64,000 nucleotides of DNA from Candidatus Uhrbacteria bacterium. Lineage in GTDB: Bacteria; Patescibacteriota; Patescibacteriia; UBA9934; GWF2-40-263. A program made the translations under genes and the position numbers. Positions 3,805 to 54,447 of the stretch are shown piece after piece (the stretch's first letter is position 1; every line of letters begins with the position of its first letter). The notes below the pieces were generated by a model, which saw only the letters and a program-made list of their open reading frames with translations, had not been told where the DNA came from and did no database searches. The stretch spans positions 180,472 to 244,471 of the forward strand of contig JACRJU010000013.1 in the NCBI GenBank assembly GCA_016219925.1, in the 5' to 3' direction.

Positions 3805-4677
3805 CTACCAGTAGCGCCGACGGAACTCCGTCGCGTCATGGTGGTTCAGGCCCGTGTTGAGGTCGGCGATGAGCAGGCCCATCAGCTGACCGAACAGGAC
3901 CATCTGCGGTCCGTTCTGTCCGCTCTTGAAAGCTTTGACCAGATCGATCGCCCGCGCGAGCTTGACGCGCGCGGCTTCCTTGGCGACGACATCGCCGTTG
4001 CGGAATGCGCGGTGTGCCTCGATGATCGCGTCGCGGTTCGACGGCCAGTTCGAGTCATGGTTCACGATCTCGCGCAGGCCGATCGTGATGGGATCCGACG
4101 CCCGAGCAGGGGGGGTCAGTGGCGGTTCGCGTCGATCCTCATCTCGAGGCTTTCCGTCGCGTCGGTCGTCCCGACGCGGTTGCTCGCTCGTGGGCTGGCG
4201 CTGTCCTGATGGAGCCGTTGCTCCTGGCGCGGTGCGCGGAGCTTGTACCACAGGAGCGCGCGGCGCGCTCTGCGAAGGGGGAAGCAGCACGGTACGCGCC
4301 CCGCCTCCGCTTGGAGCCGCAACTGCCGCCGCAACGAGATCGTCGAAGTTCGTCACACTCGCTGCGGGTTCTTCGACCGCTTCGACCGGGAGAGCTTCTA
4401 CGATCACCGGCTTGGCGACGTCGACGGTGACCTTGGCCTCCAGCTTGGCCGCGTAGGCCGCCAAGAGGACTTTGGCTGAACCGTCCGTCAGGCCTTCAGC
4501 GTAGAAGGTGGGCCTGCGAGTGAACTCGCCGACGTTGTCGATGGTGTTAGGGTTCAGACCCCCAGCCTCGTCGTTGGTGGGCTCGGGGCTGTCCCCGAGG
4601 GCTTCGACAGCCTCCTGCGAGGCCGTCGCGTCAGGGTTGGGCCCGAAGAGGGCCTCAAAGGCTTCGTTTCTGGTCAA
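3805..4677 (-). CDS. Hypothetical protein with a low-complexity Ala/Pro/Glu-rich middle and a conserved C-terminal domain (high-GC island 1)
   Basis: GC3-rich coding frame with a diverse amino-acid composition, while the opposite-strand ORFs are Arg/Ser/Ala junk. The likely start is the TTG at 4677, 6 nt after AGGAGG; the ORF tool's longer start at 4728 lies inside the -10 box. Confidence 0.55.
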   Translation of the reverse strand: MTRNEAFEALFGPNPDATASQEAVEALGDSPEPTNDEAGGLNPNTIDNVGEFTRRPTFYAEGLTDGSAKVLLAAYAAKLEAKVTVDVAKPVIVEALPVEAVEEPAASVTNFDDLVAAAVAAPSGGGARTVLLPPSQSAPRAPVVQAPRTAPGATAPSGQRQPTSEQPRRDDRRDGKPRDEDRREPPLTPPARASDPITIGLREIVNHDSNWPSNRDAIIEAHRAFRNGDVVAKEAARVKLARAIDLVKAFKSGQNGPQMVLFGQLMGLLIADLNTGLNHHDATEFRRRYW

Positions 4678-4718
4678 GGGCCACCTCCTGATTAAGGGTT
4701 GTCCAGTCGAAGGAAGCG

Positions 4719-4797
4719 AATTTATCACAAAAACTCTTATTTGTCAATAAAAAATGACAAGCGAAAGCTTGACATTTTTAGGGAAATCAGCTAATAT
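4719..4797. promoter_or_regulatory. Back-to-back divergent sigma70-like promoters of island 1
   Basis: Plus strand: TTGACA (4769-4774), 17 nt, TAATAT (4792-4797). Minus strand: TTGACA (revcomp of 4742-4747), 17 nt, TAAATT (revcomp of 4719-4724). Confidence 0.55.
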
Positions 4798-4905
4798 CGT
4801 CCCTCACGTTCGTGTCGTTTTCAACGATTCGAACATGGGGAAAGTTTCTCAACCCGCCGCTAAGCGCGGCCAAAACGCCGCGTGAGCGGCAAGGAAGGAG
4901 GCCAG

Positions 4906-6537
4906 ATGGCCACGCAGCAGTCCCAGTCCGATACCGGTGCCTTCGGCACCGACGACGTCATCGAGCGCCTGGGCGTTCGCGTGCTCGAAGAGGGCGAGAG
5001 CCCTGCCTCCGGCACGACCGCCTTGGTGCAGTTCCGGGCCGCCCCGACCCTCAAGGCGATCGGGCGCGACCTCGCCCGCGTCGCGGCCACGACCTCCATG
5101 GGCAACCGGGAGGGCGCCCGCCGCCGGTGGCTGGACCGCATGGTCATGGTCTCCGGCCCGGATGGCAAGCCCTCGGACGTCCCGCTCTTTGTGAGCGTGA
5201 CCTTCACGGGCAAGCTCGTGACGGTCAAGGGCGTTCAGGACGTGGGGGTGAGCGCGGAGATGGAGCTCCCCGGCCTCGGCCGCGTGGAGATCCAGCCGCT
5301 CTTCACCGTCGGGATCGAGTACGTCGCCGTCAAGGAAGGCGTGCTCGTGCCCACGCGCTCCTTCACCGGCGCCCTGTTCGCCCCGAAGAGTGGCAAGGGT
5401 CCCGGCAAGTTCGTGCCCATCGACTTGGCCGACCCCCAGCTCATCGCGCGCTGGAACGGCATCGTCGAGCAGGGCAAGGCGCTCAACACCGACCACGGCA
5501 AGTGGCCGACGATCCCGGTCCTCGAGACCAAGATCGGCCGGCCCGGGCAGATGATCATCCCCTTCGCGCCCCGCTACCAGGTCAAGGAGACCTTCAACGA
5601 GCGCGGGCGTGACGGCAAGGAGCGCCAGAAGTCGATCTGGGTCATCGGGACCCGGTTCGGCAAGAAAGTGATCCTGGAAAGCCGGTCGCAGGCCCCGGCG
5701 GTCATCGACGCCAGCTCGGCAAAGCCGTTCGGCGATCTCGAGTTCGTCGTCCGTGAGGGCGAGAACTCCCTGATCGTCGTCCTGCGCGGCCGGCCCGGGC
5801 AGACGCCCCTGCCGGAGTCCATGGCGACCATCGAGCAGGCGAGCGACGGGGTGGACCCGTTCGCCGTCCTCAATCTGGACGTCATGCGCTACGAGCCCGG
5901 CCGGGCGCACACCTTCGTGGAGCGGTGCATGCAGCTTCCGCTCAACTCCGCCAATCCGCTCTACAAGAGCGCGATCAACCTCGGGCTCATCGTCGCGGGC
6001 CAGTCCACGGCGGTCGTGAGCAACCAGCTCCAGGCGCTGGCTGACGAGGCCCAGCGCAAGGCCAGGGAGTTCTGGGACGCAGCCATGAAGGCGACGTGGG
6101 AGGCCTTCAGGGTCTACACGTTGCCGGAGATCGGCGACTGCCTGCAGGGCAAGCCCCTGGGGCAGGTCATCGACCGGCTCAACCCTGAGGACGCGGCCGC
6201 GGCGTGGATCACCAGCCACGTCGAGGGCGAGTACTCGCACACGAGCCCGTTTCACCGGGTCCTGCGCGAGCGCGTCCTGCGTGCCGTCGCCCGCAAGGCC
6301 GGCTACCGCGACCCGGCCCCCGAAGGCCCCGCGGCCGACGAGCAGGCCAAGCCCGCCAAGTCCGAGGCCCCGCAGAACAGCGGGACCAACGGCGCGACCA
6401 GCCCCGTCGCCGCGGACACCGCCGAGGCCCCCAAGCCGAAGCGGACCCCGCGCAAGCCGACCAAGGGCGCCAAGCCCAAGGCCGCCGCGCGCAAGACCGC
6501 CAAGCCCAAGGGCTCCCAGCCCGCACTGCGGCAGTGA
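4906..6537 (+). CDS. Hypothetical 543-aa protein with a Lys/Pro/Ala-rich basic C-terminal tail (high-GC island 1)
   Basis: AAGGAGG at 4893-4900 precedes the ATG at 4906 by 5 nt, and the frame is very GC3-rich. The tail (PKPKRTPRKPTKGAKPKAAARKTAKPKG) resembles histone H1 / HU-tail repeats. No family was recognised for the body. Confidence 0.6.
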   Translation: MATQQSQSDTGAFGTDDVIERLGVRVLEEGESPASGTTALVQFRAAPTLKAIGRDLARVAATTSMGNREGARRRWLDRMVMVSGPDGKPSDVPLFVSVTFTGKLVTVKGVQDVGVSAEMELPGLGRVEIQPLFTVGIEYVAVKEGVLVPTRSFTGALFAPKSGKGPGKFVPIDLADPQLIARWNGIVEQGKALNTDHGKWPTIPVLETKIGRPGQMIIPFAPRYQVKETFNERGRDGKERQKSIWVIGTRFGKKVILESRSQAPAVIDASSAKPFGDLEFVVREGENSLIVVLRGRPGQTPLPESMATIEQASDGVDPFAVLNLDVMRYEPGRAHTFVERCMQLPLNSANPLYKSAINLGLIVAGQSTAVVSNQLQALADEAQRKAREFWDAAMKATWEAFRVYTLPEIGDCLQGKPLGQVIDRLNPEDAAAAWITSHVEGEYSHTSPFHRVLRERVLRAVARKAGYRDPAPEGPAADEQAKPAKSEAPQNSGTNGATSPVAADTAEAPKPKRTPRKPTKGAKPKAAARKTAKPKGSQPALRQ

Positions 6538-6952: not shown

Positions 6953-6981
6953 TTGACCTTTTTCTCTGTGCCGCGTATACT
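6953..6981 (+). promoter_or_regulatory. Putative promoter of the ATP synthase operon
   Basis: TTGACC (6953-6958), 17 nt, TATACT (6976-6981). Confidence 0.5.
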
Positions 6982-7016
6982 TTCCGCGCTTGTTGACCGT
7001 TGCGCACAAGACGCTT

Positions 7017-7262
7017 ATGAGCACCGATGCCCCTTATTACCGACTTGCGATGAAGATTTTCGTAGACTTTACCGGAACCATCGCGATCCCGGTGGTTGTC
7101 GCAGCGCTTGCAGGCAAATGGCTTGATGAGCGTTATGGCACATCGCCGTGGTCTCTCATCGGCTTGTTCGCTCTTGCGCTGATTTTTACGGGCATGACGG
7201 TCGTCAAAAAAGCGTATCGGTATCGGAAAGAATTTGAATCCATTTCACACAACGCTAAGTGA
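7017..7262 (+). CDS. Small two-helix membrane protein, possibly an AtpZ/AtpI-like ATP synthase accessory protein
   Basis: An 81-aa hydrophobic protein immediately upstream of atpB, in the usual AtpI/AtpZ position. Confidence 0.4.
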   Translation: MSTDAPYYRLAMKIFVDFTGTIAIPVVVAALAGKWLDERYGTSPWSLIGLFALALIFTGMTVVKKAYRYRKEFESISHNAK

Positions 7263-7266
7263 TTGT

Positions 7267-8115
7267 ATGAGTTTCGCCATTCCTCCCGTTGCGGCTGAAC
7301 CGGTTCTCTCTATCGGAACATTTCCCATCACGAATACCATGGTGAACGCCTGGATCGCGGTTGTTTTTTTCCTGCTCATTTCTCTTGCGGTTCGTTCTCG
7401 AAAAGCGCGCGTTCCAAAAGGGTTGCAAAATATTGTGGAGTCTGTGGTGGAGTTTCTTTTGCGCGAAGTCGAAAAAGTAACAGGGGATAAAAAGAAAGCT
7501 CGGCAGTTTTTGCCGATCGTCGGCACGATCTTTCTTTTCATCCTCTTTTCTAATTGGATCGGATTGTTTCCGGGAACCGGTTCCATTGGAGTCTGGGGGA
7601 TGGTTCATGGGGAAGTGGAATTGATTCCCTTACTTCGTCCAGCCGCCAGCGATCTGAATCTCACCCTTGCGATCGCTTTGTTTGCGATCATCACCTCACA
7701 CGTCATGGCTTTGTTGTCGATCGGACCGTTAAATCACATCAGCAAATTCATCAACATCCGCGGAGTTCTGCGTTCGTTGCGCAACGGACCGATGGCTGTG
7801 ATCGTAGCGATTATCGAATTGGGTGTGGGCTTTATCGAAATCGTTGGTGAGATTGCCAAAGTGGTCTCGCTCTCGCTTCGGTTGTTTGGAAACATTTTTG
7901 CCGGCGAAGTTTTGATGACGGTTATGCTTGGATTGCTCGCCTATGTCGTGCCGATTCCGTTTATGTTTTTGGAGCTTCTGGTCGGAGCGGTTCAAGCAAC
8001 GGTTTTTGCGATGCTGACGCTTGCGTATTTGGTGGTGGCGACGGAAGATCACGGTGGCCACGAAGAAAATACTCACGGTGGCCACGAAGAAGTTCTCGTT
8101 TCAACTCATCCATAA
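7267..8115 (+). CDS. atpB: F0 ATP synthase subunit a
   Basis: Conserved LSLRLFGNIFAGEVL region with the essential Arg. The C-terminus carries a His-rich tandem repeat. Confidence 0.85.
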   Translation: MSFAIPPVAAEPVLSIGTFPITNTMVNAWIAVVFFLLISLAVRSRKARVPKGLQNIVESVVEFLLREVEKVTGDKKKARQFLPIVGTIFLFILFSNWIGLFPGTGSIGVWGMVHGEVELIPLLRPAASDLNLTLAIALFAIITSHVMALLSIGPLNHISKFINIRGVLRSLRNGPMAVIVAIIELGVGFIEIVGEIAKVVSLSLRLFGNIFAGEVLMTVMLGLLAYVVPIPFMFLELLVGAVQATVFAMLTLAYLVVATEDHGGHEENTHGGHEEVLVSTHP

Positions 8116-8355
<240 letters not shown>

Positions 8356-8528
8356 AAGTTAGCCGCAAGTAATAGGTGGCAAGTATCAAGTCGAAAACTG
8401 ACAGACTTCTGCAGAGGTCACTTGATACTTCGGACGTGTTACTCGTTTTGCCTATGTCCTCACCACAACAGACAACAGAACTTGCTCGAGGAGCCGCTCA
8501 AACCGTTGAAGCAACCGGCGGTCTTGGC

Positions 8529-9008
8529 ATGCTCGGCATCAATGCCAAAATTCTTTTGGCTCAATTGGTCAACTTTCTTATTGTGCTTCTGGTTTTGTGG
8601 CGATGGGTATATCGGCCCATGGTGAAATTGCTTGATGAACGCAGTGCGCGCATCGAAGCCAGCATGAAGCATGCCGATGAGATTGATGCGAAAATGGCGG
8701 CGATAGAAAAAGAACAACAGCGATTGGTCGGACAAGCCAAAACAGAAGCCGCGGCCATTTTAGAATCCTCTCGACAAGATGCTGAACGTCGAAAAAAAGA
8801 AATGATTGATGCGGCGAAGCAGGAGGTGCAGAGTGTTGTCGCTCAAGGAAAGGATCAGCTTCAAGCGCAAAAACACCAGATGATTCACGAGGCAAAAGAG
8901 GAGATTGTGGAGATCGCCATTCAGGCGGCCCAGAAAGTTTTACAGGAACAGATTGATGAGAAAATCTCTCATAAACTTTCCGAGCGTGTGATCAAACAAC
9001 TTTCTTAA
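8529..9008 (+). CDS. atpF: F0 ATP synthase subunit b
   Basis: One N-terminal transmembrane helix followed by a long charged coiled coil. The start is set at MLGINAK by analogy with canonical b subunits (the ORF tool starts at 8376). Confidence 0.7.
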   Translation: MLGINAKILLAQLVNFLIVLLVLWRWVYRPMVKLLDERSARIEASMKHADEIDAKMAAIEKEQQRLVGQAKTEAAAILESSRQDAERRKKEMIDAAKQEVQSVVAQGKDQLQAQKHQMIHEAKEEIVEIAIQAAQKVLQEQIDEKISHKLSERVIKQLS

Positions 9009-9011
9009 GGT

Positions 9012-9395
9012 ATGCGCGATATCCTTATTCAACTCGCCAGCGAGCTTGTGGAACGGCTGGAGAAAAAAACGGCTGATGCCGATCAGGTTGCGGATGCCGT
9101 CATTCGGTTGTTGGCACAGCGTGGTCAGCTCTCCTTGGTTCGCGAACTTCCCGAAGCCATCGAGCGCGTGTGGAAAGAGCGATATGGGGCGGCAACGATT
9201 TCCGTTCAAAGCGCCCATCCGCTCACCGCGGCCCTGCGCAAGCAAATCGAGGCACTTGCTCCGGGGGCGGAACTGCGCGAAACCGTTGATACTAAATTGA
9301 TCGGGGGAATGCGCCTGCGCATTGACGATCGCATCATTGATGGATCTATCGCCGGTCATCTTGATCAACTACGCACGCAGTGGAAAGCGAGCTAA
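9012..9395 (+). CDS. atpH: F1 ATP synthase delta subunit (short, 127 aa)
   Basis: The C-terminal motif [26 protein letters not shown] is diagnostic of delta/OSCP. The N-terminal domain is shortened. Confidence 0.75.
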
Positions 9396-10918: not shown

Positions 10919-13175
<2,257 letters not shown>

Positions 13176-14875: not shown

Positions 14876-15490
14876 ATGGGACGATTGTCCACGTTTGACA
14901 GGGAAGTGATTGGCATCCTTCGAGAGGAGAACGTCCTGCAAGACGGCGAAGCGCACCTGCTTGAGTCGCCCACGGGTGTGATCGTGGTGGCCTGTTCGGA
15001 CGGCGACCAGATGCCGGACATCTTCGACCACTATCGGGACCTCGCGCGGGCGGGGGAATGGCCCGTGCGCCCGCACATGCTCTGCCTGCACGGTGGAGCC
15101 ATGCTGATCGCGCCCGACTGCCCGCTCTACCGCGCGTTCCACGTGGACGAACTGCTCCTTCAGCACATCCGCGAGGCCGAGGGACTCGACCTCAAGGGGA
15201 TCGGCACGGTCGTGCTCTACGTGCATGCCCCCTGTGGCGCGGCCGGCTTGGCGAACCTGACGGTCGTCAACCAGCTCGACATGCTCATGCGCGCCAAGGC
15301 TCGCGTCAAGGCGATCGATATGACCAATAGGGTCATCTGTTTCGTCCACGTCGACTACGGCAACGAGGGCAACGGAAGCCATAGACGTCGCACGTACTTC
15401 ATGTCCGCGGCGGGCTGGGCCGAGTTCTGGAACCGTCAGGGCCACGAGTTGTGGGGGCGCTTACTAGGTTTTCCTGTGTCGGCGAGTTGA
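14876..15490 (+). CDS. Hypothetical protein, paralog family member C (high-GC island 2)
   Basis: Motifs VVACSDGD, HGGAMLIAPD and HAPCGAAGL. GC3-rich frame. Confidence 0.6.
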   Translation: MGRLSTFDREVIGILREENVLQDGEAHLLESPTGVIVVACSDGDQMPDIFDHYRDLARAGEWPVRPHMLCLHGGAMLIAPDCPLYRAFHVDELLLQHIREAEGLDLKGIGTVVLYVHAPCGAAGLANLTVVNQLDMLMRAKARVKAIDMTNRVICFVHVDYGNEGNGSHRRRTYFMSAAGWAEFWNRQGHELWGRLLGFPVSAS

Positions 15491-15504
15491 ACAAACACCT
15501 CCTG

Positions 15505-15531
15505 ACCGTTCCTGCGAAGGGCGGTTTTTTT
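15505..15531 (+). terminator. Putative terminator between the island-2 paralogs
   Basis: Imperfect GC hairpin ccgttcctgcgaagggcgg followed by T7. Confidence 0.4.
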
Positions 15532-15619
15532 ATATCATCCAGATGTCATCCCAAGCGAGTTTGAAGAGAGCCGAAGGATTTTTCTAAATGGCTGAAAAAG
15601 AGTTATCAGCCCATCGGGA

Positions 15620-15648
15620 TTGACAAGATTGTGTAAAGTGCGTAAACT
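15620..15648 (+). promoter_or_regulatory. Promoter of island-2 gene D
   Basis: TTGACA, 17 nt, TAAACT, then AGGAGG 6 nt before the ATG at 15694. Confidence 0.5.
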
Positions 15649-15693
15649 CGTCGAGAGCTGTGCACCAACCGCACAGTCTAACGGAGGAGAATC

Positions 15694-16230
15694 ATGACCT
15701 TGCAAGATCTCGTGTCTCGTGGTGTGCTCGTGCCTCGGACGGTGCGCGAGAAGAACACCAAGCCGGTCGTCGTCGTCTGCGACAGCGAGACGGTCATCGA
15801 GGGGCTGTGCGACAAGCGCGTTTCTCGGCGCGTGATCGCGAACGTCGCCGGGGTGCTCGTCGGCACCCCCGAGAGCGATCTCCAGTCCGAGATCGGCGTC
15901 GATCCGGACAAGGTTCTGTACGAACCTCTCCAGATTGCCTTCTCCAACGGGCACCGGTACATCCTGCTGGTCGTAAACCCGGACGCGGTCTGGGGGATCA
16001 TGAGTGAGATGACCAACGTCGAGCTCATTGACCACATGATGCAGGTCGCTCGCGAGATCCGGGAGCGGATGCCCCACTTCGAACTCGACTGCGTCGTCGT
16101 CAAGGGAACGAACTACGGGGAGGTCTACACGGTCAACCCCGAGGCTTGGACGCGGTTCTACGCGACGTACGAGACGCGCGTGCTCGGTCGCCAGGATGAC
16201 GGGCTGGAGCTCGTCCCCGCCACCGTCTGA
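15694..16230 (+). CDS. Hypothetical protein, paralog family member D with degenerate His/Cys motif (high-GC island 2)
   Basis: Aligns with gene C (VVVVCDSE, VAGVLVGTPE, YILLVVNPDAVWG, CVVVKGTNYGE) but lacks the HxxC pair. Confidence 0.6.
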   Translation: MTLQDLVSRGVLVPRTVREKNTKPVVVVCDSETVIEGLCDKRVSRRVIANVAGVLVGTPESDLQSEIGVDPDKVLYEPLQIAFSNGHRYILLVVNPDAVWGIMSEMTNVELIDHMMQVAREIRERMPHFELDCVVVKGTNYGEVYTVNPEAWTRFYATYETRVLGRQDDGLELVPATV

Positions 16231-16344
16231 CGCCTCGCGTCTTCACTCATGGCACCTTCGCGACTTCTTCTACTGCACCCGTCGTCCTCCGGGTGCCTTT
16301 TTTATATTTTTTTTAATAGTCTCGCCAGCTAATCATTCATGAAA

Positions 16345-16415
16345 CAGATTTGTAACCATGTCTCTGGGCCAACGGACTCATCGCCGTTGTTCCCTCCGAC
16401 ATGGTTACAAATCTG
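16345..16415 (+). repeat. Structured hairpin repeat, family 2, copy D
   Basis: An 18-bp stem (CAGATTTGTAACCATGTC / GACATGGTTACAAATCTG) closes the conserved loop. It sits between convergent genes. Confidence 0.8.
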
Positions 16416-16437
16416 TTTTATAAAAAAACATCCATTC

Positions 16438-16980
16438 TCACGGATGCAGAATGCGGATGCGCAGACGGATGTGACTGCGCTTGGGGTTGCCGATGTAGAT
16501 CGAGTCGTAGTCCTGGAGCTCGACGTACACGTCACGCATCAGCGGCCGGGCCTTGGGTGCGCCGGTGCGCCGATGATACGTCGTGTGGCGGTCGGACATC
16601 GTACGCAGGCAAGGTTTGTCGTCCCGGCGTTCGATCACGGCCTGGATGCGCGAGAGCGTACGCTCTGCGTTCAGGCCAACCAGGAGCGGGAGCAGATCGA
16701 CTTCTGGCACGATGGGAGGAACGGTGGTGTCGTCCTTGCGACCGATGCGAAGAGGCGGGTCTCCCGCCGATTCCAGATCGAAGGTAAACGAGATCGGCAC
16801 ATCGCCTGCAACCAGCTCTCGATCACCCACCTGTTCAACGATGATCTCCATGGTGGCAACGGGCTGTTGCACAGCGACGATCGCCTTTGGTTGCGACGGG
16901 GGGGACAGGGGACTCCCATCCTGATCGCACACGAGCGTGCCGTTCTTGAAGTGCTTGCCGCATGAGGGGCAGGTGATCAT
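16438..16980 (-). CDS. Zinc-ribbon plus FHA-domain protein (high-GC island 3)
   Basis: N-terminal CPSCGKHF...C ribbon. FHA signatures: IGRKDD, LSRIQAVIERR, the HTTYHRRTG beta-turn and L.DYDSIYIGN. The ATG overlaps the vWA stop (ATGA). Confidence 0.6.
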   Translation of the reverse strand: MITCPSCGKHFKNGTLVCDQDGSPLSPPSQPKAIVAVQQPVATMEIIVEQVGDRELVAGDVPISFTFDLESAGDPPLRIGRKDDTTVPPIVPEVDLLPLLVGLNAERTLSRIQAVIERRDDKPCLRTMSDRHTTYHRRTGAPKARPLMRDVYVELQDYDSIYIGNPKRSHIRLRIRILHP

Positions 16981-18254
16981 GGCTTCTCCTCATCCGTTCC
17001 ACTGTGTTGCGGAAAGTGCATGGTGTGAACCACGCTGACCGAACCGCCCGTGAGCGTTTCGCTTCCGCGATCGACTGCGGCGCGGCTGTGCGTTCCACGC
17101 GCGAGGTGATCGACCATGGTGCGCAAGGCAGTGGCTGTGGCATGGTCGCCGGCACGTTCGTAGACGACCGAGGCGCCATTGAGGTCGCCGCGATCAGCCA
17201 TCTCCGCCCCGGCCATGTGTTGGGCGACCCTGATCACTTCTGGGTCGGGTTCGGTCTGTGCGGCCTCGTCCCACGTGAACGTTGCGTCGACAGAGAGGTC
17301 GCAGGTGAACGAATTGCCGCTCGAACCGGCTTCCGTGCCGGCAAGCGACAGCTTCAGGATTGGGTGAGTTCCGGGTTCCGGTGTCCCGACCTCGATCTCG
17401 AAGTAGTACTGCTGACCCCGCGCGCGATCGAGCGCGCCCGACGCATCGGTAAACGCGCCGTCTTGGCCGACGTTGAGCGGGCGCTGCTGGGGCATGAAGC
17501 GGGCCGCACGGATGAGGCTCGTCCCTTGCGAGATCTGTCCGGAGACGACCAGTCCTCGGACTCCGACCCCGCGCAGGAAGCCGACCTCGGAGCGGAGGTG
17601 ATCGAGCAGTTCGTCTGCTTGCATCACATGCTTGAGGAACGACCCGTTGCCGGCGCGAACCGCGAGTTGCTGCAGCAGGGCGAAGTTGTAGTCACCGCCG
17701 GTGCCGTAGACGAGCATCGGCAAGCCGTAGTCGCGCGCCCGATCGGCGCTCTTGACCAGTTGCTGGTGGTCTTGGTGGACGTTCACCGTGCTCTCGCCGT
17801 CGGTGAACAGGACGAGCCGCGTCTCGAAGCGGATATCGGGGCGTGTGATGGCTTCCTCGACGCCGCCGGAGATGAACGTGTCGCCTTCCGCCTTGATGGC
17901 CGCGATGAGAGCGCGCGCGTGACTGTGAACCTTATAGTCCATGTTCGTGCTGGGCAGATCAAGATCGTGGAAGTCGGCGAACGTGATGAGCGCGAGCCGA
18001 TCCTTCGGACCAAGATCGCCGATCAGCTCACGCAGGGCAAGCCGCACGGCCTCGATCTTTCTGCCCTCCATTGAGCCGGAACGGTCGATGACCAGGCGCA
18101 GGTCGATCGGCGGAGCGTTGGGGTTGGTGGTCGCGGGACGAATGTCCACGAACACCGGCACGACAACAGGACCCCCGTCGATGTGTGTGACTTCACGACC
18201 CAGATGCACGGTTACATGCACGTGAGTCAACTTGTGAACGAGCTGGGTACCCAT
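16977..18254 (-). CDS. von Willebrand factor A (vWA) domain protein with MIDAS motif (high-GC island 3)
   Basis: LVIDRSGSMEG (DxSxS), LITFADF and LFTDGES. GGAGG lies 5 nt before the ATG. The minus-strand promoter is TTGACA, 17 nt, TAACGT. Confidence 0.7.
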   Translation of the reverse strand: MGTQLVHKLTHVHVTVHLGREVTHIDGGPVVVPVFVDIRPATTNPNAPPIDLRLVIDRSGSMEGRKIEAVRLALRELIGDLGPKDRLALITFADFHDLDLPSTNMDYKVHSHARALIAAIKAEGDTFISGGVEEAITRPDIRFETRLVLFTDGESTVNVHQDHQQLVKSADRARDYGLPMLVYGTGGDYNFALLQQLAVRAGNGSFLKHVMQADELLDHLRSEVGFLRGVGVRGLVVSGQISQGTSLIRAARFMPQQRPLNVGQDGAFTDASGALDRARGQQYYFEIEVGTPEPGTHPILKLSLAGTEAGSSGNSFTCDLSVDATFTWDEAAQTEPDPEVIRVAQHMAGAEMADRGDLNGASVVYERAGDHATATALRTMVDHLARGTHSRAAVDRGSETLTGGSVSVVHTMHFPQHSGTDEEKP

Positions 18255-49849: not shown

Positions 49850-50553
49850 ACGAGATGATGTTTTTGTTTGATAACATTCATGGCCATTTTATAATCCCGA
49901 AGGGTTTTTGGCATCCAACCGATTCGATTCCATGGGAGACGATACATGATTGAGGGCATCCAAGTTGAGATGCTCGCGCGGCCATGGTCAGGGAGAACCC
50001 TGAACAGTTCTTTGTTGATTCCAATTCCCATTTGACCGTTTTCAAGAAGCGTCAGCCACAAATCCCAATCTTGAAATCGTTTTAGCGTTGGATCAAATCC
50101 AACAAAAGCGGTGCGTCGTATCAGAGAAGTGGTATGGATAAAATTGTGCTGGCGAAGAATGTTGGCGTCAAATGGCGTGTAGGCAAAGCGTTTTTTCCCC
50201 CAAAAAAAAACCCCGTACGCATAGGCCGCTTGAGGATGCGACTGCAAGGCTTGTTCCATTTCTTTTAGCAGATGGGAATCTGCTTGGATGTCCGCATCGC
50301 AAAAAAGAAGAAGATCGCCATGACTGTGTGCGGCGCCAGCATTGCGCGCCGCCGGAGCTCCCTGATTCGTTTGATAATACGATTGAACACGCGAACGATA
50401 ACGCGCGAGTAATTCTTGGGTAGCATCCGTAGATCCATCGTCAATCACAATAATTTCATCAGCCGTGCGGGATTGAGCGAGTAAAGAATCCAAACACCGG
50501 CTAAGGGTTTGTTCATGTTGATAGGTTGGGATGATCACGCTGATGGTGCTCAT
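49846..50553 (-). CDS. Family 2 glycosyltransferase
   Basis: SVIIPTYQHE...IIVIDDGSTD. Confidence 0.75.
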   Translation of the reverse strand: MSTISVIIPTYQHEQTLSRCLDSLLAQSRTADEIIVIDDGSTDATQELLARYRSRVQSYYQTNQGAPAARNAGAAHSHGDLLLFCDADIQADSHLLKEMEQALQSHPQAAYAYGVFFWGKKRFAYTPFDANILRQHNFIHTTSLIRRTAFVGFDPTLKRFQDWDLWLTLLENGQMGIGINKELFRVLPDHGRASISTWMPSIMYRLPWNRIGWMPKTLRDYKMAMNVIKQKHHLV

Positions 50554-51596
50554 AGATACGGATCAAGTTTTTTCCATTGATCAACACATGCAAACATATT
50601 TTGGACTCTTGTTTTTGCGTTTTGACCTAGTTGTTGGCGCAACGAGATGTCGGTGGAGAGTTGAAAAATCGCTTGAGAAAGCGCTTGCAAATTTCCCGGC
50701 GCAACAAGCAAACCCGTTTGGCCATGAACAATCGCTTCGTCTACTCCTGAAATGGTGGTGCTGATGGACGGAATGCCAAATTGTGCCGCTTCCAAAAAAA
50801 CAAGACCAAAACCTTCTTTATCAATAGGATCATTGCTCACAGGCATCACAAAGAGATCCGCTTGCGCGTAACAGTCACGCAAAGTGTTTTCATCAACTTC
50901 TCCAAGAAATTCAACCTCGTGCAAATTAAGCTCTCCGGCGGTTTGTTCAAGCATGGTTCGTTCAGGCCCCTTCCCTACGATGACATAGCGAAACGGAGGA
51001 ATTCGTCCTGTCGTTTTGAGAGATTGAAGAGCCATGAGCACCTGTAAATGGCCTTTGCGGGCAACCAACCGTCCCACCGTAAGCAGAGTGAGAGGCTTGT
51101 CGTTTGATGAAACAGAGGGTGAAGTCCTTTGCGGGTTTACACACGGATAGATTGTCAAAAGGCGAGAGAGGCGAAATTGCAGAGCGACTTCCGCGTTCAG
51201 AGCATTTGAGTTGGTGATGACGAGTGCGGCCCGTTTCAAAACGCGCGAGGCTACCCATTGTTTGAGCGGATGTTGCAACGCCAGACGGACATCCATTCCG
51301 TGAACCACAACCAAATAGGGTTTACGCGTGAACCACGAGGCCACCCAAGCAGCTGTGCCAAAAGGAAGGACATGACTCGTGATCACAAGATCGTAGGTCG
51401 CGCGCTCTTTGATGAGAAGACGTACCGCTGTGAGCCAACGAAGCGGACCGTGCGATCGCAGAAGTTGTGTCGGATCACTGACTACGCGAATGCGCTTACC
51501 GAAATACTCCTTCAAGGTTTCCAAATAGCGCGCCACTCCTCCGGTCTGCGGCGGAAATTCTGTGGTGATGAGAAGAAGACGACGACTAGCGGCCAT
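50550..51596 (-). CDS. GT4-family (GT-B) glycosyltransferase
   Basis: The EGFGLVFLEAAQFGIPSI motif (E-x7-E). Confidence 0.75.
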   Translation of the reverse strand: MAASRRLLLITTEFPPQTGGVARYLETLKEYFGKRIRVVSDPTQLLRSHGPLRWLTAVRLLIKERATYDLVITSHVLPFGTAAWVASWFTRKPYLVVVHGMDVRLALQHPLKQWVASRVLKRAALVITNSNALNAEVALQFRLSRLLTIYPCVNPQRTSPSVSSNDKPLTLLTVGRLVARKGHLQVLMALQSLKTTGRIPPFRYVIVGKGPERTMLEQTAGELNLHEVEFLGEVDENTLRDCYAQADLFVMPVSNDPIDKEGFGLVFLEAAQFGIPSISTTISGVDEAIVHGQTGLLVAPGNLQALSQAIFQLSTDISLRQQLGQNAKTRVQNMFACVDQWKKLDPYL

Positions 51597-53025
51597 AGGA
51601 GAAAAGAGATTTGAGTTTTCGCACGTCATTCAAAACCAGCAGTCTGGTGAGGACGAGAGCTATGATATAAACGGCCACACAAACTGGAATGATTGCCATC
51701 CAACCAATTATGGGCATCAACAAACGACCAACCATGACCATAAAGAGTCCGCTGATACCAAATCGTACGGCATCAAATAACGACGGCCCAAAGCGAAAAG
51801 CCGGGATGACTGGTTTGATAAAAAAGAGTCCGCTGATGAACATAAAACTAAAACTCAATAAAGCGGATATTGCGGCGCCCTGAATGCCTATTTTTGGAAC
51901 AAGCACGGCATTCAGCAAGATGTTGATGACCATGGTGAAGCCCATGATGATCGTTTTTGTGGTTTGGCGATTTCCGGCGTTGAGCAGGGAGCCAATGGGA
52001 AAATCAAGAAAGATCGGGATTAAGACGAAAACGAGCAAGGATAACACCGGGCCAGAAGCTCGATAGGCCGATCCAGCGAGAACGACGGCTTGATTTGCAA
52101 TAAGCCACAGTCCCAGAACAAGCGGGGTGCTGATGAGCATCATGTACCACAGAGCTCGGCGCAGGAGATGAGGAACACGGGCGGGATGATGTTCCAGGGC
52201 CGCACTGATGCTTGGGTAGAGGCCGGCGGTAAAGGCAAGCGGCAAAAATTGAAAAGCGTAAGTGAATTTGTAGGCGATGCTGTAAATGCCCACCGCGGTG
52301 GTATCGATGAATTTCGAAATAAACAGAGAGTCAACATAGGAATACACTTTGACGAAAATAGCAGCGAGGGCGAATGGGAGGGCCAGGCTTAACAAGTGTT
52401 TTGCATTTGCAGAGTTCCAATGCGGCTTCAAAATGGACCAGCCAAAACGTGCGATTAGGGCGCGGCTCGACAACGTCACATTTGTCGCACTGCCCAAGAC
52501 AAGAGCAAAAGTCAGCCAGAGAAGGGATGGATGGATGAAAAGGGAAAGGCCGCCAACCATTGCCGTCACTGCCTGCCCCGTAAGCATCCCCGTGGCTTCA
52601 ATCGAAAGATTTTGGTGACCGCGCAAAACTCCATAAAAAAGCAGATGTAGGGAATCCAGAATAAGCGAGAGCCCAGCGACCATGGTGAGCATTACCACTT
52701 CCCTTTCATAATGAAGCAGAAGCGCTGCGGCGATGGCTGATGCGTAGGCAATGATGAAAAGCGGAATTTTTAAACTTAAGGCTCGTGAGAGAAGGCGCGG
52801 TGTTTCTTGTGGGGATTTGGCAATCTCACGAATAACGACTGGAGTCATGCCGAAATCAGCGATGACAGAAAAAATGAGTGCGATGGAAACGGTAAGAAAA
52901 TATTGACCGGTCCGTTCTGGCTGCATGATGCGCGCGACAAACAAAAAATAGACAAAGGCCACCAGCTTTTGTCCGACGGATGCGATAGTCAGGTACAAGG
53001 TATTTTTTGCAAGAAGCCCAGACAC
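51586..53025 (-). CDS. Wzx-like polysaccharide flippase (MOP superfamily)
   Basis: A 479-aa protein with about 14 transmembrane segments and a typical Wzx N-terminus. Confidence 0.7.
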   Translation of the reverse strand: MSGLLAKNTLYLTIASVGQKLVAFVYFLFVARIMQPERTGQYFLTVSIALIFSVIADFGMTPVVIREIAKSPQETPRLLSRALSLKIPLFIIAYASAIAAALLLHYEREVVMLTMVAGLSLILDSLHLLFYGVLRGHQNLSIEATGMLTGQAVTAMVGGLSLFIHPSLLWLTFALVLGSATNVTLSSRALIARFGWSILKPHWNSANAKHLLSLALPFALAAIFVKVYSYVDSLFISKFIDTTAVGIYSIAYKFTYAFQFLPLAFTAGLYPSISAALEHHPARVPHLLRRALWYMMLISTPLVLGLWLIANQAVVLAGSAYRASGPVLSLLVFVLIPIFLDFPIGSLLNAGNRQTTKTIIMGFTMVINILLNAVLVPKIGIQGAAISALLSFSFMFISGLFFIKPVIPAFRFGPSLFDAVRFGISGLFMVMVGRLLMPIIGWMAIIPVCVAVYIIALVLTRLLVLNDVRKLKSLFSYGR

Positions 53026-53115
53026 ACAACGGCAGGATAGCGTAAAAGCGGCACTGTGTAAATAAAAAAGGCGCTTCGTGTGGCGCCGCAGGGAGAGAGC
53101 GTCGGTGTGATGGGC

Positions 53116-53964
53116 TTAGCCCAGGAAGGTGATGCTTGTGAGCGATCCGCGTCGCCCCCGGACGGTCTGGCCGAGCGGATCCAGTCCGATTTGCGTGCGT
53201 CCGATCGTCTCGAGCTCGTAGCCCTCGATTTTCAGATTGATGGCGGCCTGACCTTCGCAGAATGTGGCGCGCCACAGCGATTGCAGAACCCGTAGGAAGT
53301 GCCCTTCGAGCAGGACCCCGACCTCGCGCTGGTTCTCCTGAGCCCAGGTGTCGCGACCGGGAACCACCACCGGCTTGTGAGTGGTCTTGTGGTAGCCAGG
53401 CGGCCACAAAGAGACCTTGCCGACGCGGAGCGGCGACTTGAGCGGCCAGCATTCGGCCGCCACCATCTGGTTGTGGTGGATCGCCGCGTCGCGAGCCCTG
53501 GCGATATGCTCGATCGAGGAGGCATACCACTCGAACCGCTGTTGACCGCGACGGTCGAAAGCGAAACACCCCTGGATGATCGTGCCCGTTGGAGGCTGAA
53601 GCGCGCTGAGGTGGCGATGCCCTTCGCGAAGGGTCGAGACTGCATCGTAGCTTACACCAACGTTCCCGGTGTCGTCGATCGAGCCGCGCGTGCGTCCGAG
53701 CAAACGTTGCAGGAGACTCGGTTCGTACGGGCTGACCGACAGCGCCCAAAAGTAGTGGGTCGCCGTCGGATCTTGACGCACGTCCGTGACTTCGCTTCGG
53801 AATCCGACGACTGCCGGAACCCGGTGGCCGACACCCGGAAGGTTGATCACAGCCACATCGGTCGGGACGTCTTCGAGACGGTATTTGAGCTCTTTGGCGG
53901 CCATGGCGCCGCGCAAAGCGTCAGAGAGCGACACGTGCGAAATGGGGATCATCATTGTAGACAC
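53116..53964 (-). CDS. Hypothetical protein (high-GC island 4)
   Basis: GC3-rich frame with balanced composition. AGGAGGAGG lies 6 nt before the GTG at 53964. The ATG at 53997 is an alternative start but would sit inside the predicted promoter. Confidence 0.5.
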   Translation of the reverse strand: MSTMMIPISHVSLSDALRGAMAAKELKYRLEDVPTDVAVINLPGVGHRVPAVVGFRSEVTDVRQDPTATHYFWALSVSPYEPSLLQRLLGRTRGSIDDTGNVGVSYDAVSTLREGHRHLSALQPPTGTIIQGCFAFDRRGQQRFEWYASSIEHIARARDAAIHHNQMVAAECWPLKSPLRVGKVSLWPPGYHKTTHKPVVVPGRDTWAQENQREVGVLLEGHFLRVLQSLWRATFCEGQAAINLKIEGYELETIGRTQIGLDPLGQTVRGRRGSLTSITFLG

Positions 53965-54009
53965 AGCGTACCTCCTCCTGTTGTTGGGCGTTGGCATTTA
54001 AACATAGAA

Positions 54010-54036
54010 ACAAAAAACAGGCAAAGAGCCTGTTTT
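54010..54036 (-). terminator. Bidirectional intrinsic terminator after rpsI
   Basis: AACAGGC-TCTTT-GCCTGTT flanked by A6 and T6. A weak TTGCCT, 17 nt, TTAAAT promoter overlaps it. Confidence 0.7.
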
Positions 54037-54042
54037 TTATCA

Positions 54043-54447
54043 CTAGCGTTTTGACCACTGTGGTGATCGGCGTGCAGATTTTTTACCAAACTTTTTTCGC
54101 TCTCGCACGCGTGCGTCGCGACTCAGCATGCCCATTTTTTTTAAACTGGAACGAAATTCTGGATTGAAATCGATAAGGGCGCGAGCAATGCCTAAACGAA
54201 TGCTATCCGCCTGTCCGTGAATACCTCCACCAGAGACGTGCACGGTCACATCGAAGACATCTTGCGTTCCTGTCTGAATGAATGGAGAAACAACGGCTTG
54301 CTGCAGAGTTGCGAGCGGCAAGTATGTTTCGAGGGGGCGATCATTGATTGTCATCTTTCCGGAACCCCCATTCAAAAGTCGCACGCGTGCGATGGCTTCT
54401 TTCCGGCGGCCAACGGCTTCGATATAAGTTGTCTGTTTTTCAGTCAT
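54043..54447 (-). CDS. rpsI: 30S ribosomal protein S9
   Basis: C-terminal ...SRDARVRERKKFGKKSARRSPQWSKR. Confidence 0.9.
   Translation of the reverse strand: MTEKQTTYIEAVGRRKEAIARVRLLNGGSGKMTINDRPLETYLPLATLQQAVVSPFIQTGTQDVFDVTVHVSGGGIHGQADSIRLGIARALIDFNPEFRSSLKKMGMLSRDARVRERKKFGKKSARRSPQWSKR

Follow-up and report, generated by a model that had tools for sequence, protein, structure and literature searches.

In a 64,000-nucleotide stretch of the Candidatus Uhrbacteria contig JACRJU010000013.1 (positions 180,472 to 244,471 of the forward strand; hereafter the window), a GC-rich gene encoding a 282-residue protein (53116-53964, minus strand) lies between rpsI, the gene for ribosomal protein S9, and wzx of a glycan operon. 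The original prediction for this locus presented the gene as one of several high-GC islands, inserted at this site and possibly belonging to a dispersed foreign gene set. From comparison with related genomes, we consider it likely that the gene has been inherited vertically at a fixed slot within Uhrbacteria, to which it would be confined, that it is transcribed as a monocistronic unit, and that its GC excess is maintained; this assessment does not extend to guesses about its function. What is unusual about the gene appears to be a persistent GC-rich codon usage, which it shares with other clade-specific genes.

Coding status and protein family

A search of 5.8 billion proteins returned an identical copy of the protein and three homologues at 40-44% identity, and a profile search against 1.84 billion cluster representatives yielded 38 family members at E <= 0.001, 16 of which reached E <= 1e-30. 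At least one new member was added by a second profile search, in which a 29-sequence family alignment was run against a word-indexed database. Within the 29-sequence alignment Trp73, Asp205 and Thr257 are invariant, insertions and deletions fall between codons, and the conserved motifs PPxGT, ASSxE...R.R..A...N, P..D.W and SLWKAxF were identified. For the closest pair of loci (L002 and L003), synonymous divergence (dS) was 0.61 and nonsynonymous divergence (dN) 0.08, giving a dN/dS of 0.14; in every other pair the synonymous sites of the gene were saturated. Furthermore, GC content at first codon positions (GC1) exceeds that at second positions (GC2), while GC content at third positions (GC3) tracks that of the host, a pattern typical of coding sequence. 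These results demonstrate that the GC-rich stretch encodes a real protein and that the gene is under purifying selection.

The named family members belong to Candidatus Uhrbacteria (e.g. MBI4714077.1 and MBI4438063.1, both annotated as 'hypothetical protein'), and the family appears, so far as seen, to be restricted to this group. As had been supposed of a single gene without recognisable family, scans of the 282-residue protein against Pfam, NCBIfam, PHROGs and PADLOC gave no match at E <= 10, the 29 family members scanned singly against Pfam gave no consistent match, and no chain was matched at E <= 10 when the family profile was compared with PDB sequences. The gene evolves ~3.6 times faster than the ribosomal proteins L17, L13 and S9 taken together.

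Conserved position and vertical descent

Every family member for which a contig was retrieved, representing 11 lineages and extending down to ~22% identity, sits in the rpsI-wzx interval, with all three genes on one strand. The slot is embedded in a collinear block with the order CorA-PKD-MurJ-AlaS-InfA-S13-S11-S4-RpoA-L17-L13-S9, the GC-rich gene, and then Wzx-GT4-GT2-GT2-Wzy-Fmt-Def-PriA. Loci with rpsI-wzx synteny comprise L001-L004, L006, L007-L009, L010-L011, L012, L013, L014-L015 and L018. Identity to the window protein runs from 44-46% for L003 (protein P0002), 43% for L018, 42-44% for L002 (P0003) and 40% for L001 (P0004, Candidatus Uhrbacteria), through 38% for both L006 and L010-L011 (P0008) and 33% for L007-L009 (P0011, Candidatus Uhrbacteria), to 28% for L014-L015 (P0017), 23% for L012 (P0031) and 22% for L013 (P0027). 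Relatives in which rpsI directly precedes wzx, which had been expected under an insertion, were not encountered among these 11 lineages, all of which carry the gene at the slot. An alignment-based related-locus search found two loci in GTDB genomes and one in a metagenome collection; the same search in viral contigs returned no locus, and thus no viral copy.

One of the syntenic loci, L006 (CAYIPP010000086.1), is a 4-kb contig binned as 'uncultured Gammaproteobacteria' that displays the Uhrbacteria-type order of L17, L13, S9, the family member and wzx. Because its ribosomal proteins are 67-75% identical to those of the window, this contig is probably mis-binned.

Pairwise distances for the gene follow those calculated from L17, L13 and S9 (Mantel r =.74, p =.0003), and in small neighbour-joining trees of nine taxa the sister pairs L001/L018 and L002/L006 are common to the gene and the ribosomal proteins. 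No tRNA gene was found in the 64-kb window, and no mobility open reading frame (ORF) adjoins the gene. Also considered as a candidate att site was a 19-nucleotide flanking direct repeat (17/19 identical), which was judged a chance occurrence, its copies lying in conserved wzx codons and in an arm of the rpsI terminator. Taken together, these comparisons indicate that the gene has been inherited vertically at the rpsI-wzx slot since the common ancestor of the sampled lineages, contrary to its description as an insertion.

In two lineages the slot holds additional genes. The slot of L012 (435-1517 and 1584-2585) contains two tandem paralogues, the extra 360-residue gene matching the family profile at E 4e-21. 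The slot of L007 contains an extra 296-residue gene (11101-11991) sharing only the region of the SLWxAxF helix, a weak match (hhalign probability 28%) that may represent a very diverged paralogue.

Persistence and probable maintenance of the GC excess

The coding sequence has a GC content of 62.8%, compared with ~49% in its neighbours, and the interval 53060-54036 reaches 61.1% against 50% in its flanks; the original prediction was correct in describing the stretch as GC-rich, its figure of ~66% over ~0.9 kb being an overestimate. Only the coding sequence is GC-rich, and both intergenic spacers are AT-rich. By codon position, the GC content of the gene is.64,.48 and.755 (GC1, GC2 and GC3), compared with a GC3 of ~.48 in its neighbours and.42-.61 among host genes in the window. 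The encoded protein is also biased in composition, with Gly, Ala, Arg and Pro elevated (30.9 vs 26.3%) and Phe, Tyr, Met, Ile, Asn and Lys reduced (16 vs 24%). An enrichment in aromatic, His and Gln residues, previously noted for this protein, holds for Trp (2.1 vs 1.0%) and His (3.9 vs 2.3%) only in part of that set, since Phe is depleted and Phe, Trp, Tyr, His and Gln together account for just 16.0 vs 15.0%.

In 10 of the 10 lineages measured the gene is GC-richer than its neighbours, with a GC excess of +0.03 to +0.14 and a GC3 offset of +0.06 to +0.28 (mean +0.17). Host GC3 spans 0.28-0.74 across these lineages, and the GC3 of the gene is correlated with it (r = 0.83). Amino-acid composition accounts for 35-55% of the GC excess in most lineages and synonymous choice for the remainder, and on a logit scale the offset computed from the ten-lineage comparison amounts to 0.27-1.26. 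The original prediction had regarded relatives with the same gene at the same position and at host GC as the mark of an ancestral gene; the position is indeed shared, while in composition the gene exceeds its host in every lineage.

Comparison of the window's organism with each relative shows saturation at the synonymous sites of S4, RpoA, S9 and S13 (pS 0.65-0.84). Under the standard amelioration model a compositional offset decays approximately as exp(-2d), where d is the number of substitutions per site, so that at synonymous saturation a historical foreign signal should be gone and an offset that is still present would have been maintained or renewed. We infer that the GC excess is maintained and not left over from a recent insertion. 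Candidates for the maintaining force are GC-biased gene conversion and selection, the latter acting on synonymous positions or on the stability of the mRNA, and the logit offset is of the size that would be expected of a weak fixation bias. With respect to mRNA structure, folding of the gene compared with dinucleotide shuffles gave a z of -2.2. Against synonymous-codon shuffles the gene gave a z of -2.1, the GC-rich island genes a mean of ~-1.7 and eight host genes ~0, with large scatter. These values are no more than suggestive of selection on mRNA structure in the GC-rich genes.

A codon-usage class of seven ORFs

Six further GC-rich ORFs were identified in the window, at 3805-4728 (minus strand), 4882-6537 (plus), 14876-15490 (plus), 15694-16230 (plus), 16438-16980 (minus) and 16977-18254 (minus). 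GC3 among the seven ranges from 0.74 to 0.95. A comparison of codon usage across all seven, as the original prediction had proposed, revealed that relative synonymous codon usage (RSCU) correlates at r 0.79-0.95 among the seven and at 0.09-0.39 with the pool of host genes, compared with 0.56-0.93 for individual host genes against the same pool; for the gene between rpsI and wzx, the corresponding values are.86 to the six other GC-rich ORFs and.39 to host genes. The seven GC-rich ORFs thus form one discrete codon-usage class. Nothing relevant emerged from the literature when GC-rich islands or classes of codon usage were sought for Uhrbacteria or Patescibacteria.

At the thresholds used, the six other ORFs had no PHROG or PADLOC match, save for a weak match of a vWA protein to a PHROG of unknown function; this vWA protein, which equals MBI5370213.1 from Candidatus Uhrbacteria, is also the only one of the six with a Pfam domain. 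It belongs to island 3 (14876-18254), together with a zinc-ribbon/FHA-like protein of 180 residues and two paralogous proteins of 178-204 residues. The island-3 module is syntenic beside a UvrD/PDDEXK helicase in the window and in two relatives (L016, 6239-10563; L017, 2880-5995), in both of which it is likewise rich in GC3 (.64-.92 vs ~.45), and it may constitute a clade-specific vWA-FHA signalling module. The ORF at 4882-6537 (plus strand, 551 residues) is without a family match, has a GC3 of.946, and carries a Lys/Ala/Pro-rich C-terminal tail resembling those of histone H1.

The compositional style that the original prediction saw as common to this gene and islands 1-3 is borne out by the shared codon usage, whereas the labels 'inserted' and 'foreign' are not supported: judged by synteny and divergence, the GC-rich set would consist of genes specific to the clade and passed down vertically, as opposed to a foreign load acquired recently. 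A broader proposal, conceivable if somewhat doubtful at present, is that Uhrbacteria keep a second gene class at fixed positions, with G/C-ending codons actively maintained over times that saturate synonymous sites, its members being the gene studied here, the vWA/FHA-like module by the UvrD-type helicase and two island-1 proteins. If this were true, the class would owe its codons either to locus-specific GC-biased gene conversion, acting where recombination hot spots lie, or to selection for mRNAs that are GC-rich and highly structured. Selection of that kind would imply a regulon set apart by its codon usage and the stability of its mRNAs, with a possible tie to a symbiotic lifestyle.

Organization of the predicted transcription unit

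On the minus strand, gene order read from the sequence places the end of rpsI at 54043. A terminator scan identified an intrinsic terminator for rpsI at 54009-54041 (minus strand), consisting of the hairpin AAAAAACAGGC-TCTTT-GCCTGTTTTTT and a T-run, and an equivalent hairpin with T-run is present 3' of rpsI in every related locus. The promoter-like site of the GC-rich gene (53996-54024, minus strand) comprises a -35 element TTGCCT (54024-54019), a 17-nucleotide spacer and a -10 element TTAAAT (54001-53996), with the -35 element falling inside the rpsI terminator, in its loop and 3' arm. The pattern TTGnCt-17-TTaAaT recurs directly 3' of the rpsI terminator in 9-10 related lineages, those named being L001, L002, L003, L006, L007, L010, L013, L014 and L018. 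This conservation across relatives suggests that TTGCCT-17-TTAAAT functions as a promoter, consistent with the weak promoter previously placed in the 3' arm of the terminator.

A Shine-Dalgarno sequence, AGGAGGAGG (53971-53979, minus strand), was read from the sequence 6 nucleotides 5' of the GTG at 53964, and a GGAG(G) motif is found 5-9 nucleotides ahead of the start codon in related loci. From this GTG the coding sequence extends to a TAA stop at 53118-53116. A longer version of 293 residues (53116-53997, minus strand), which appears in a program-made list of ORFs, begins at an ATG at 53997, a start that was rejected since it overlaps the -10 box. Given this overlap, and that the N-termini of homologues align with the GTG start (MSTMMIPISHVS vs MATTQIVPVTHVS), the protein comprises 282 residues; of the 282-293 residues first proposed, only the lower figure is retained, along with the proposed ribosome-binding site and GTG start. 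The terminator scan also recovered the GC-hairpin/T6 terminator that had been ascribed to the gene (53060-53087, minus strand), which has the structure GGCGCC-ACACGAA-GCGCC followed by TTTTTTATTT with its T6 run. A hairpin with T-run likewise occurs 3' of the gene in L001, L003, L006, L010, L013, L014 and L018, and terminators stand on both sides of the gene in every lineage in which both flanks are readable.

Ahead of the wzx start (53025, minus strand) lies a second promoter-like site, TTTACA-17-TATCCT (53034-53062, minus strand), which matches the consensus at 9/12 positions and is the sole sigma-70-like match in a scan of 52800-54300. This arrangement points to separate transcripts for the glycan operon and the GC-rich gene.

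Two long ORFs that overlap the gene were rejected as genes, because only the frame of the 282-residue protein is open in all 11 lineages: one of 297 residues in another frame (52856-53749, minus strand) is closed in relatives, and the open frame of an antisense ORF of 251 residues (53299-54054, plus strand) is not conserved in them. Both were judged to be spurious, long open frames of this kind arising in GC-rich DNA because stop codons are scarce there.

Lacking a Shine-Dalgarno motif and lying close together or overlapping, most host genes elsewhere in the window may be translationally coupled; GGAGG-type Shine-Dalgarno sites are carried by the GC-rich ORFs and rpoA. Within the glycan operon, wzx and GT4 are separate, overlapping genes in the window (51586-53025 and 50550-51629, respectively), and in L001, a Uhrbacteria relative with a GC content of 37%, wzx and the GT4 glycosyltransferase were called as one fused product of 804 residues (6957-9371).

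Predicted protein structure

The 282-residue protein has no transmembrane segment or signal-like N-terminus, its maximum Kyte-Doolittle value over 19 residues being <= 1.65. With the 29-sequence alignment as input, AlphaFold2 returned a model with a predicted local distance difference test score (pLDDT) of 83.3 and a predicted template modelling score (pTM) of 0.78. The model has short N-terminal strands, two long beta-hairpins (residues 52-78 and 129-149) and helices at 108-120, 152-171 and 206-235, such that the two hairpins pack on three long helices. An independent AlphaFold2 model of a 40%-identical Uhrbacteria homologue displays the same architecture (pLDDT 81.8). The product is accordingly modelled as a soluble, non-secreted alpha/beta protein.

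When both models were searched with Foldseek against PDB, and one of them also against BFVD, no match was significant (E <= 0.001 or template modelling (TM) score >= 0.5), the best reaching E 0.03-0.1 and TM <= 0.22. The platform of major histocompatibility complex (MHC) class I-like proteins (CD1, MR1, FcRn) recurred among the top matches of both models, having in common with them a beta-sheet under long helices; at E >= 0.1, probability <= 0.14 and TM <= 0.22, any likeness goes no further than a loose similarity in topology.

Proposed model and alternative readings

In the model that we favour, the family has kept a constant position, with the rpsM-rpsK-rpsD-rpoA-rplQ-rplM-rpsI cluster on one side and the wzx-GT4-GT2-GT2-wzy glycan operon on the other. 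The gene would form a monocistronic unit, read from a putative sigma-70-type promoter laid over the rpsI terminator and provided with a strong Shine-Dalgarno sequence, a GTG start and its own intrinsic terminator. Its high GC content would combine a composition rich in Gly, Ala, Arg and Pro with a gene-specific force holding G/C-ending codons above the host level, a force that would have a population-scaled strength of ~0.3-1.3 on the logit scale and would be shared with the six other GC-rich ORFs.

Several observations weigh against parts of this model. The promoter-like site is weak, scoring 8/12 to consensus, which is under the scan threshold. The GC3 offset varies widely, from +.06 in L006 to +.28 in its sister L002, implying that the maintaining force is not constant. 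Also, every rpsI-wzx junction examined carries the gene, so that an old horizontal transfer into the founder of the clade is still conceivable. As regards a function suggested by the neighbourhood, a terminator and the wzx promoter-like site separate the gene from the glycan operon, and the whole 20-kb region is collinear, so that adjacency carries little information.

These last two points bear most directly on the possibility, a guess from adjacency that we regard as rather unlikely, that the protein is an accessory cytoplasmic factor of the Wzx/Wzy envelope-glycan pathway, for example a sugar-modifying enzyme or a regulator. In its favour, the gene is always immediately upstream of wzx and co-oriented with wzx, the glycosyltransferases and wzy in loci with enough sequence, Pfam lists for the cluster include no recognisable priming transferase or precursor-modifying enzymes, and the slot sometimes holds a second paralogue, a kind of variation typical of glycan loci. 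Beyond the intervening regulatory signals, however, the protein has no similarity to any glycan-pathway family and no membrane segment.

That the gene came from a high-GC donor and entered the space separating the rpsI terminator from the glycan operon, as one piece of a dispersed horizontal set, is in our view improbable. Such an origin would agree with the atypical composition and codon usage common to all seven ORFs, with the lack of homologues in any annotated family and with a gene that carries its own putative promoter and terminator, and an acquisition predating the divergence of all sampled lineages is compatible with the data. The shared slot across 11 lineages (down to ~22% identity) and the congruence with ribosomal proteins nevertheless speak against it, as does the finding of no donor-like homologue outside the syntenic family among the 5.8 billion or 1.8 billion proteins searched. 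Nor were an integrase, a tRNA or a viral copy found, the sole flanking repeat having been attributed to chance. Furthermore, the GC-rich DNA stops at the coding sequence, with host-like flanks, and at synonymous saturation a historical GC signal should have vanished. A recent foreign insertion, in particular, appears largely refuted by these sequence comparisons.

Very improbable, too, is a role as a clade-specific ribosome- or RNA polymerase-associated factor, encoded by a tail gene of the rpsM...rpoA...rplM-rpsI cluster. The gene always directly follows rpsI on the same strand, and bacteria of the Candidate Phyla Radiation (CPR) have an unusual ribosome composition; yet a conserved rpsI terminator and a separate promoter-like site are predicted ahead of the gene, its codon usage is unlike that of ribosomal genes, and the protein has near-neutral charge, evolves at 3.6 times the ribosomal-protein rate and contains no known RNA-binding motif.

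Finally, the reading of the stretch as a structured RNA that codes for no protein, or as an ORF arising by chance where GC is high, for which one might cite the several long overlapping ORFs in the window and an mRNA that folds somewhat better than its dinucleotide and synonymous shuffles (z -2.2 and -2.1), is rejected as wholly implausible in view of the protein-level conservation with indels between codons, the dN/dS of 0.14, a GC1 above GC2 with GC3 tracking the host, a single frame open in all lineages, the confident AlphaFold2 fold, and Rfam scans in which no match to the gene reached half the gathering score and no family attained the gathering score anywhere in the 64-kb window.

Implications

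These results suggest that a sharp anomaly in GC content and codon usage is an unreliable mark of recent horizontal transfer in CPR bacteria, given that here the anomaly would belong to old, vertically inherited, clade-defining genes. With the GC3 of the gene 6-28 points above that of its genome, while host GC3 spans 0.28-0.74, the locus offers a clean natural test case that could separate mutation bias, biased gene conversion and synonymous-site selection in an uncultivated lineage. In addition, the gene represents a new protein family, confidently modelled, with no recognisable fold relative in PDB or BFVD and conserved across Uhrbacteria, so that it could serve as a lineage marker and would merit structural and functional study.

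Comparison with known systems

Horizontally acquired genomic islands, for which Lawrence and Ochman reportedly formulated the amelioration model, resemble the gene in several respects, including GC content and codon usage atypical of the resident genome, regulatory signals of their own and a product without annotation. The gene differs from such islands in its presence at the same locus in all relatives, its congruent phylogeny and its lack of mobility hallmarks, and in a GC content that has not ameliorated despite synonymous saturation. Most alien genes, moreover, are AT-richer than their host, whereas this gene is GC-richer.

Another parallel may be found in GC-biased gene conversion, to which Lassalle et al. 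2015 (PMC4450053) attribute within-genome heterogeneity of GC3 in bacteria. As in that account, some genes stand above the GC3 of their own genome, and the logit offset is of the size of a weak fixation bias; in the window, however, the pattern is that of a discrete class of seven ORFs and not a gradient, and gene conversion is put forward as a candidate cause only.

With orphan genes of CPR/Patescibacteria the gene shares a lineage-confined family, an absence of domain matches, fast evolution (3.6 times the ribosomal-protein rate) and a lack of functional annotation. Unlike many of these orphans, it appears to be old, being present in 11 lineages at saturated synonymous divergence, and it is fixed in position, under purifying selection, confidently folded in the model and marked by a stable compositional signature.

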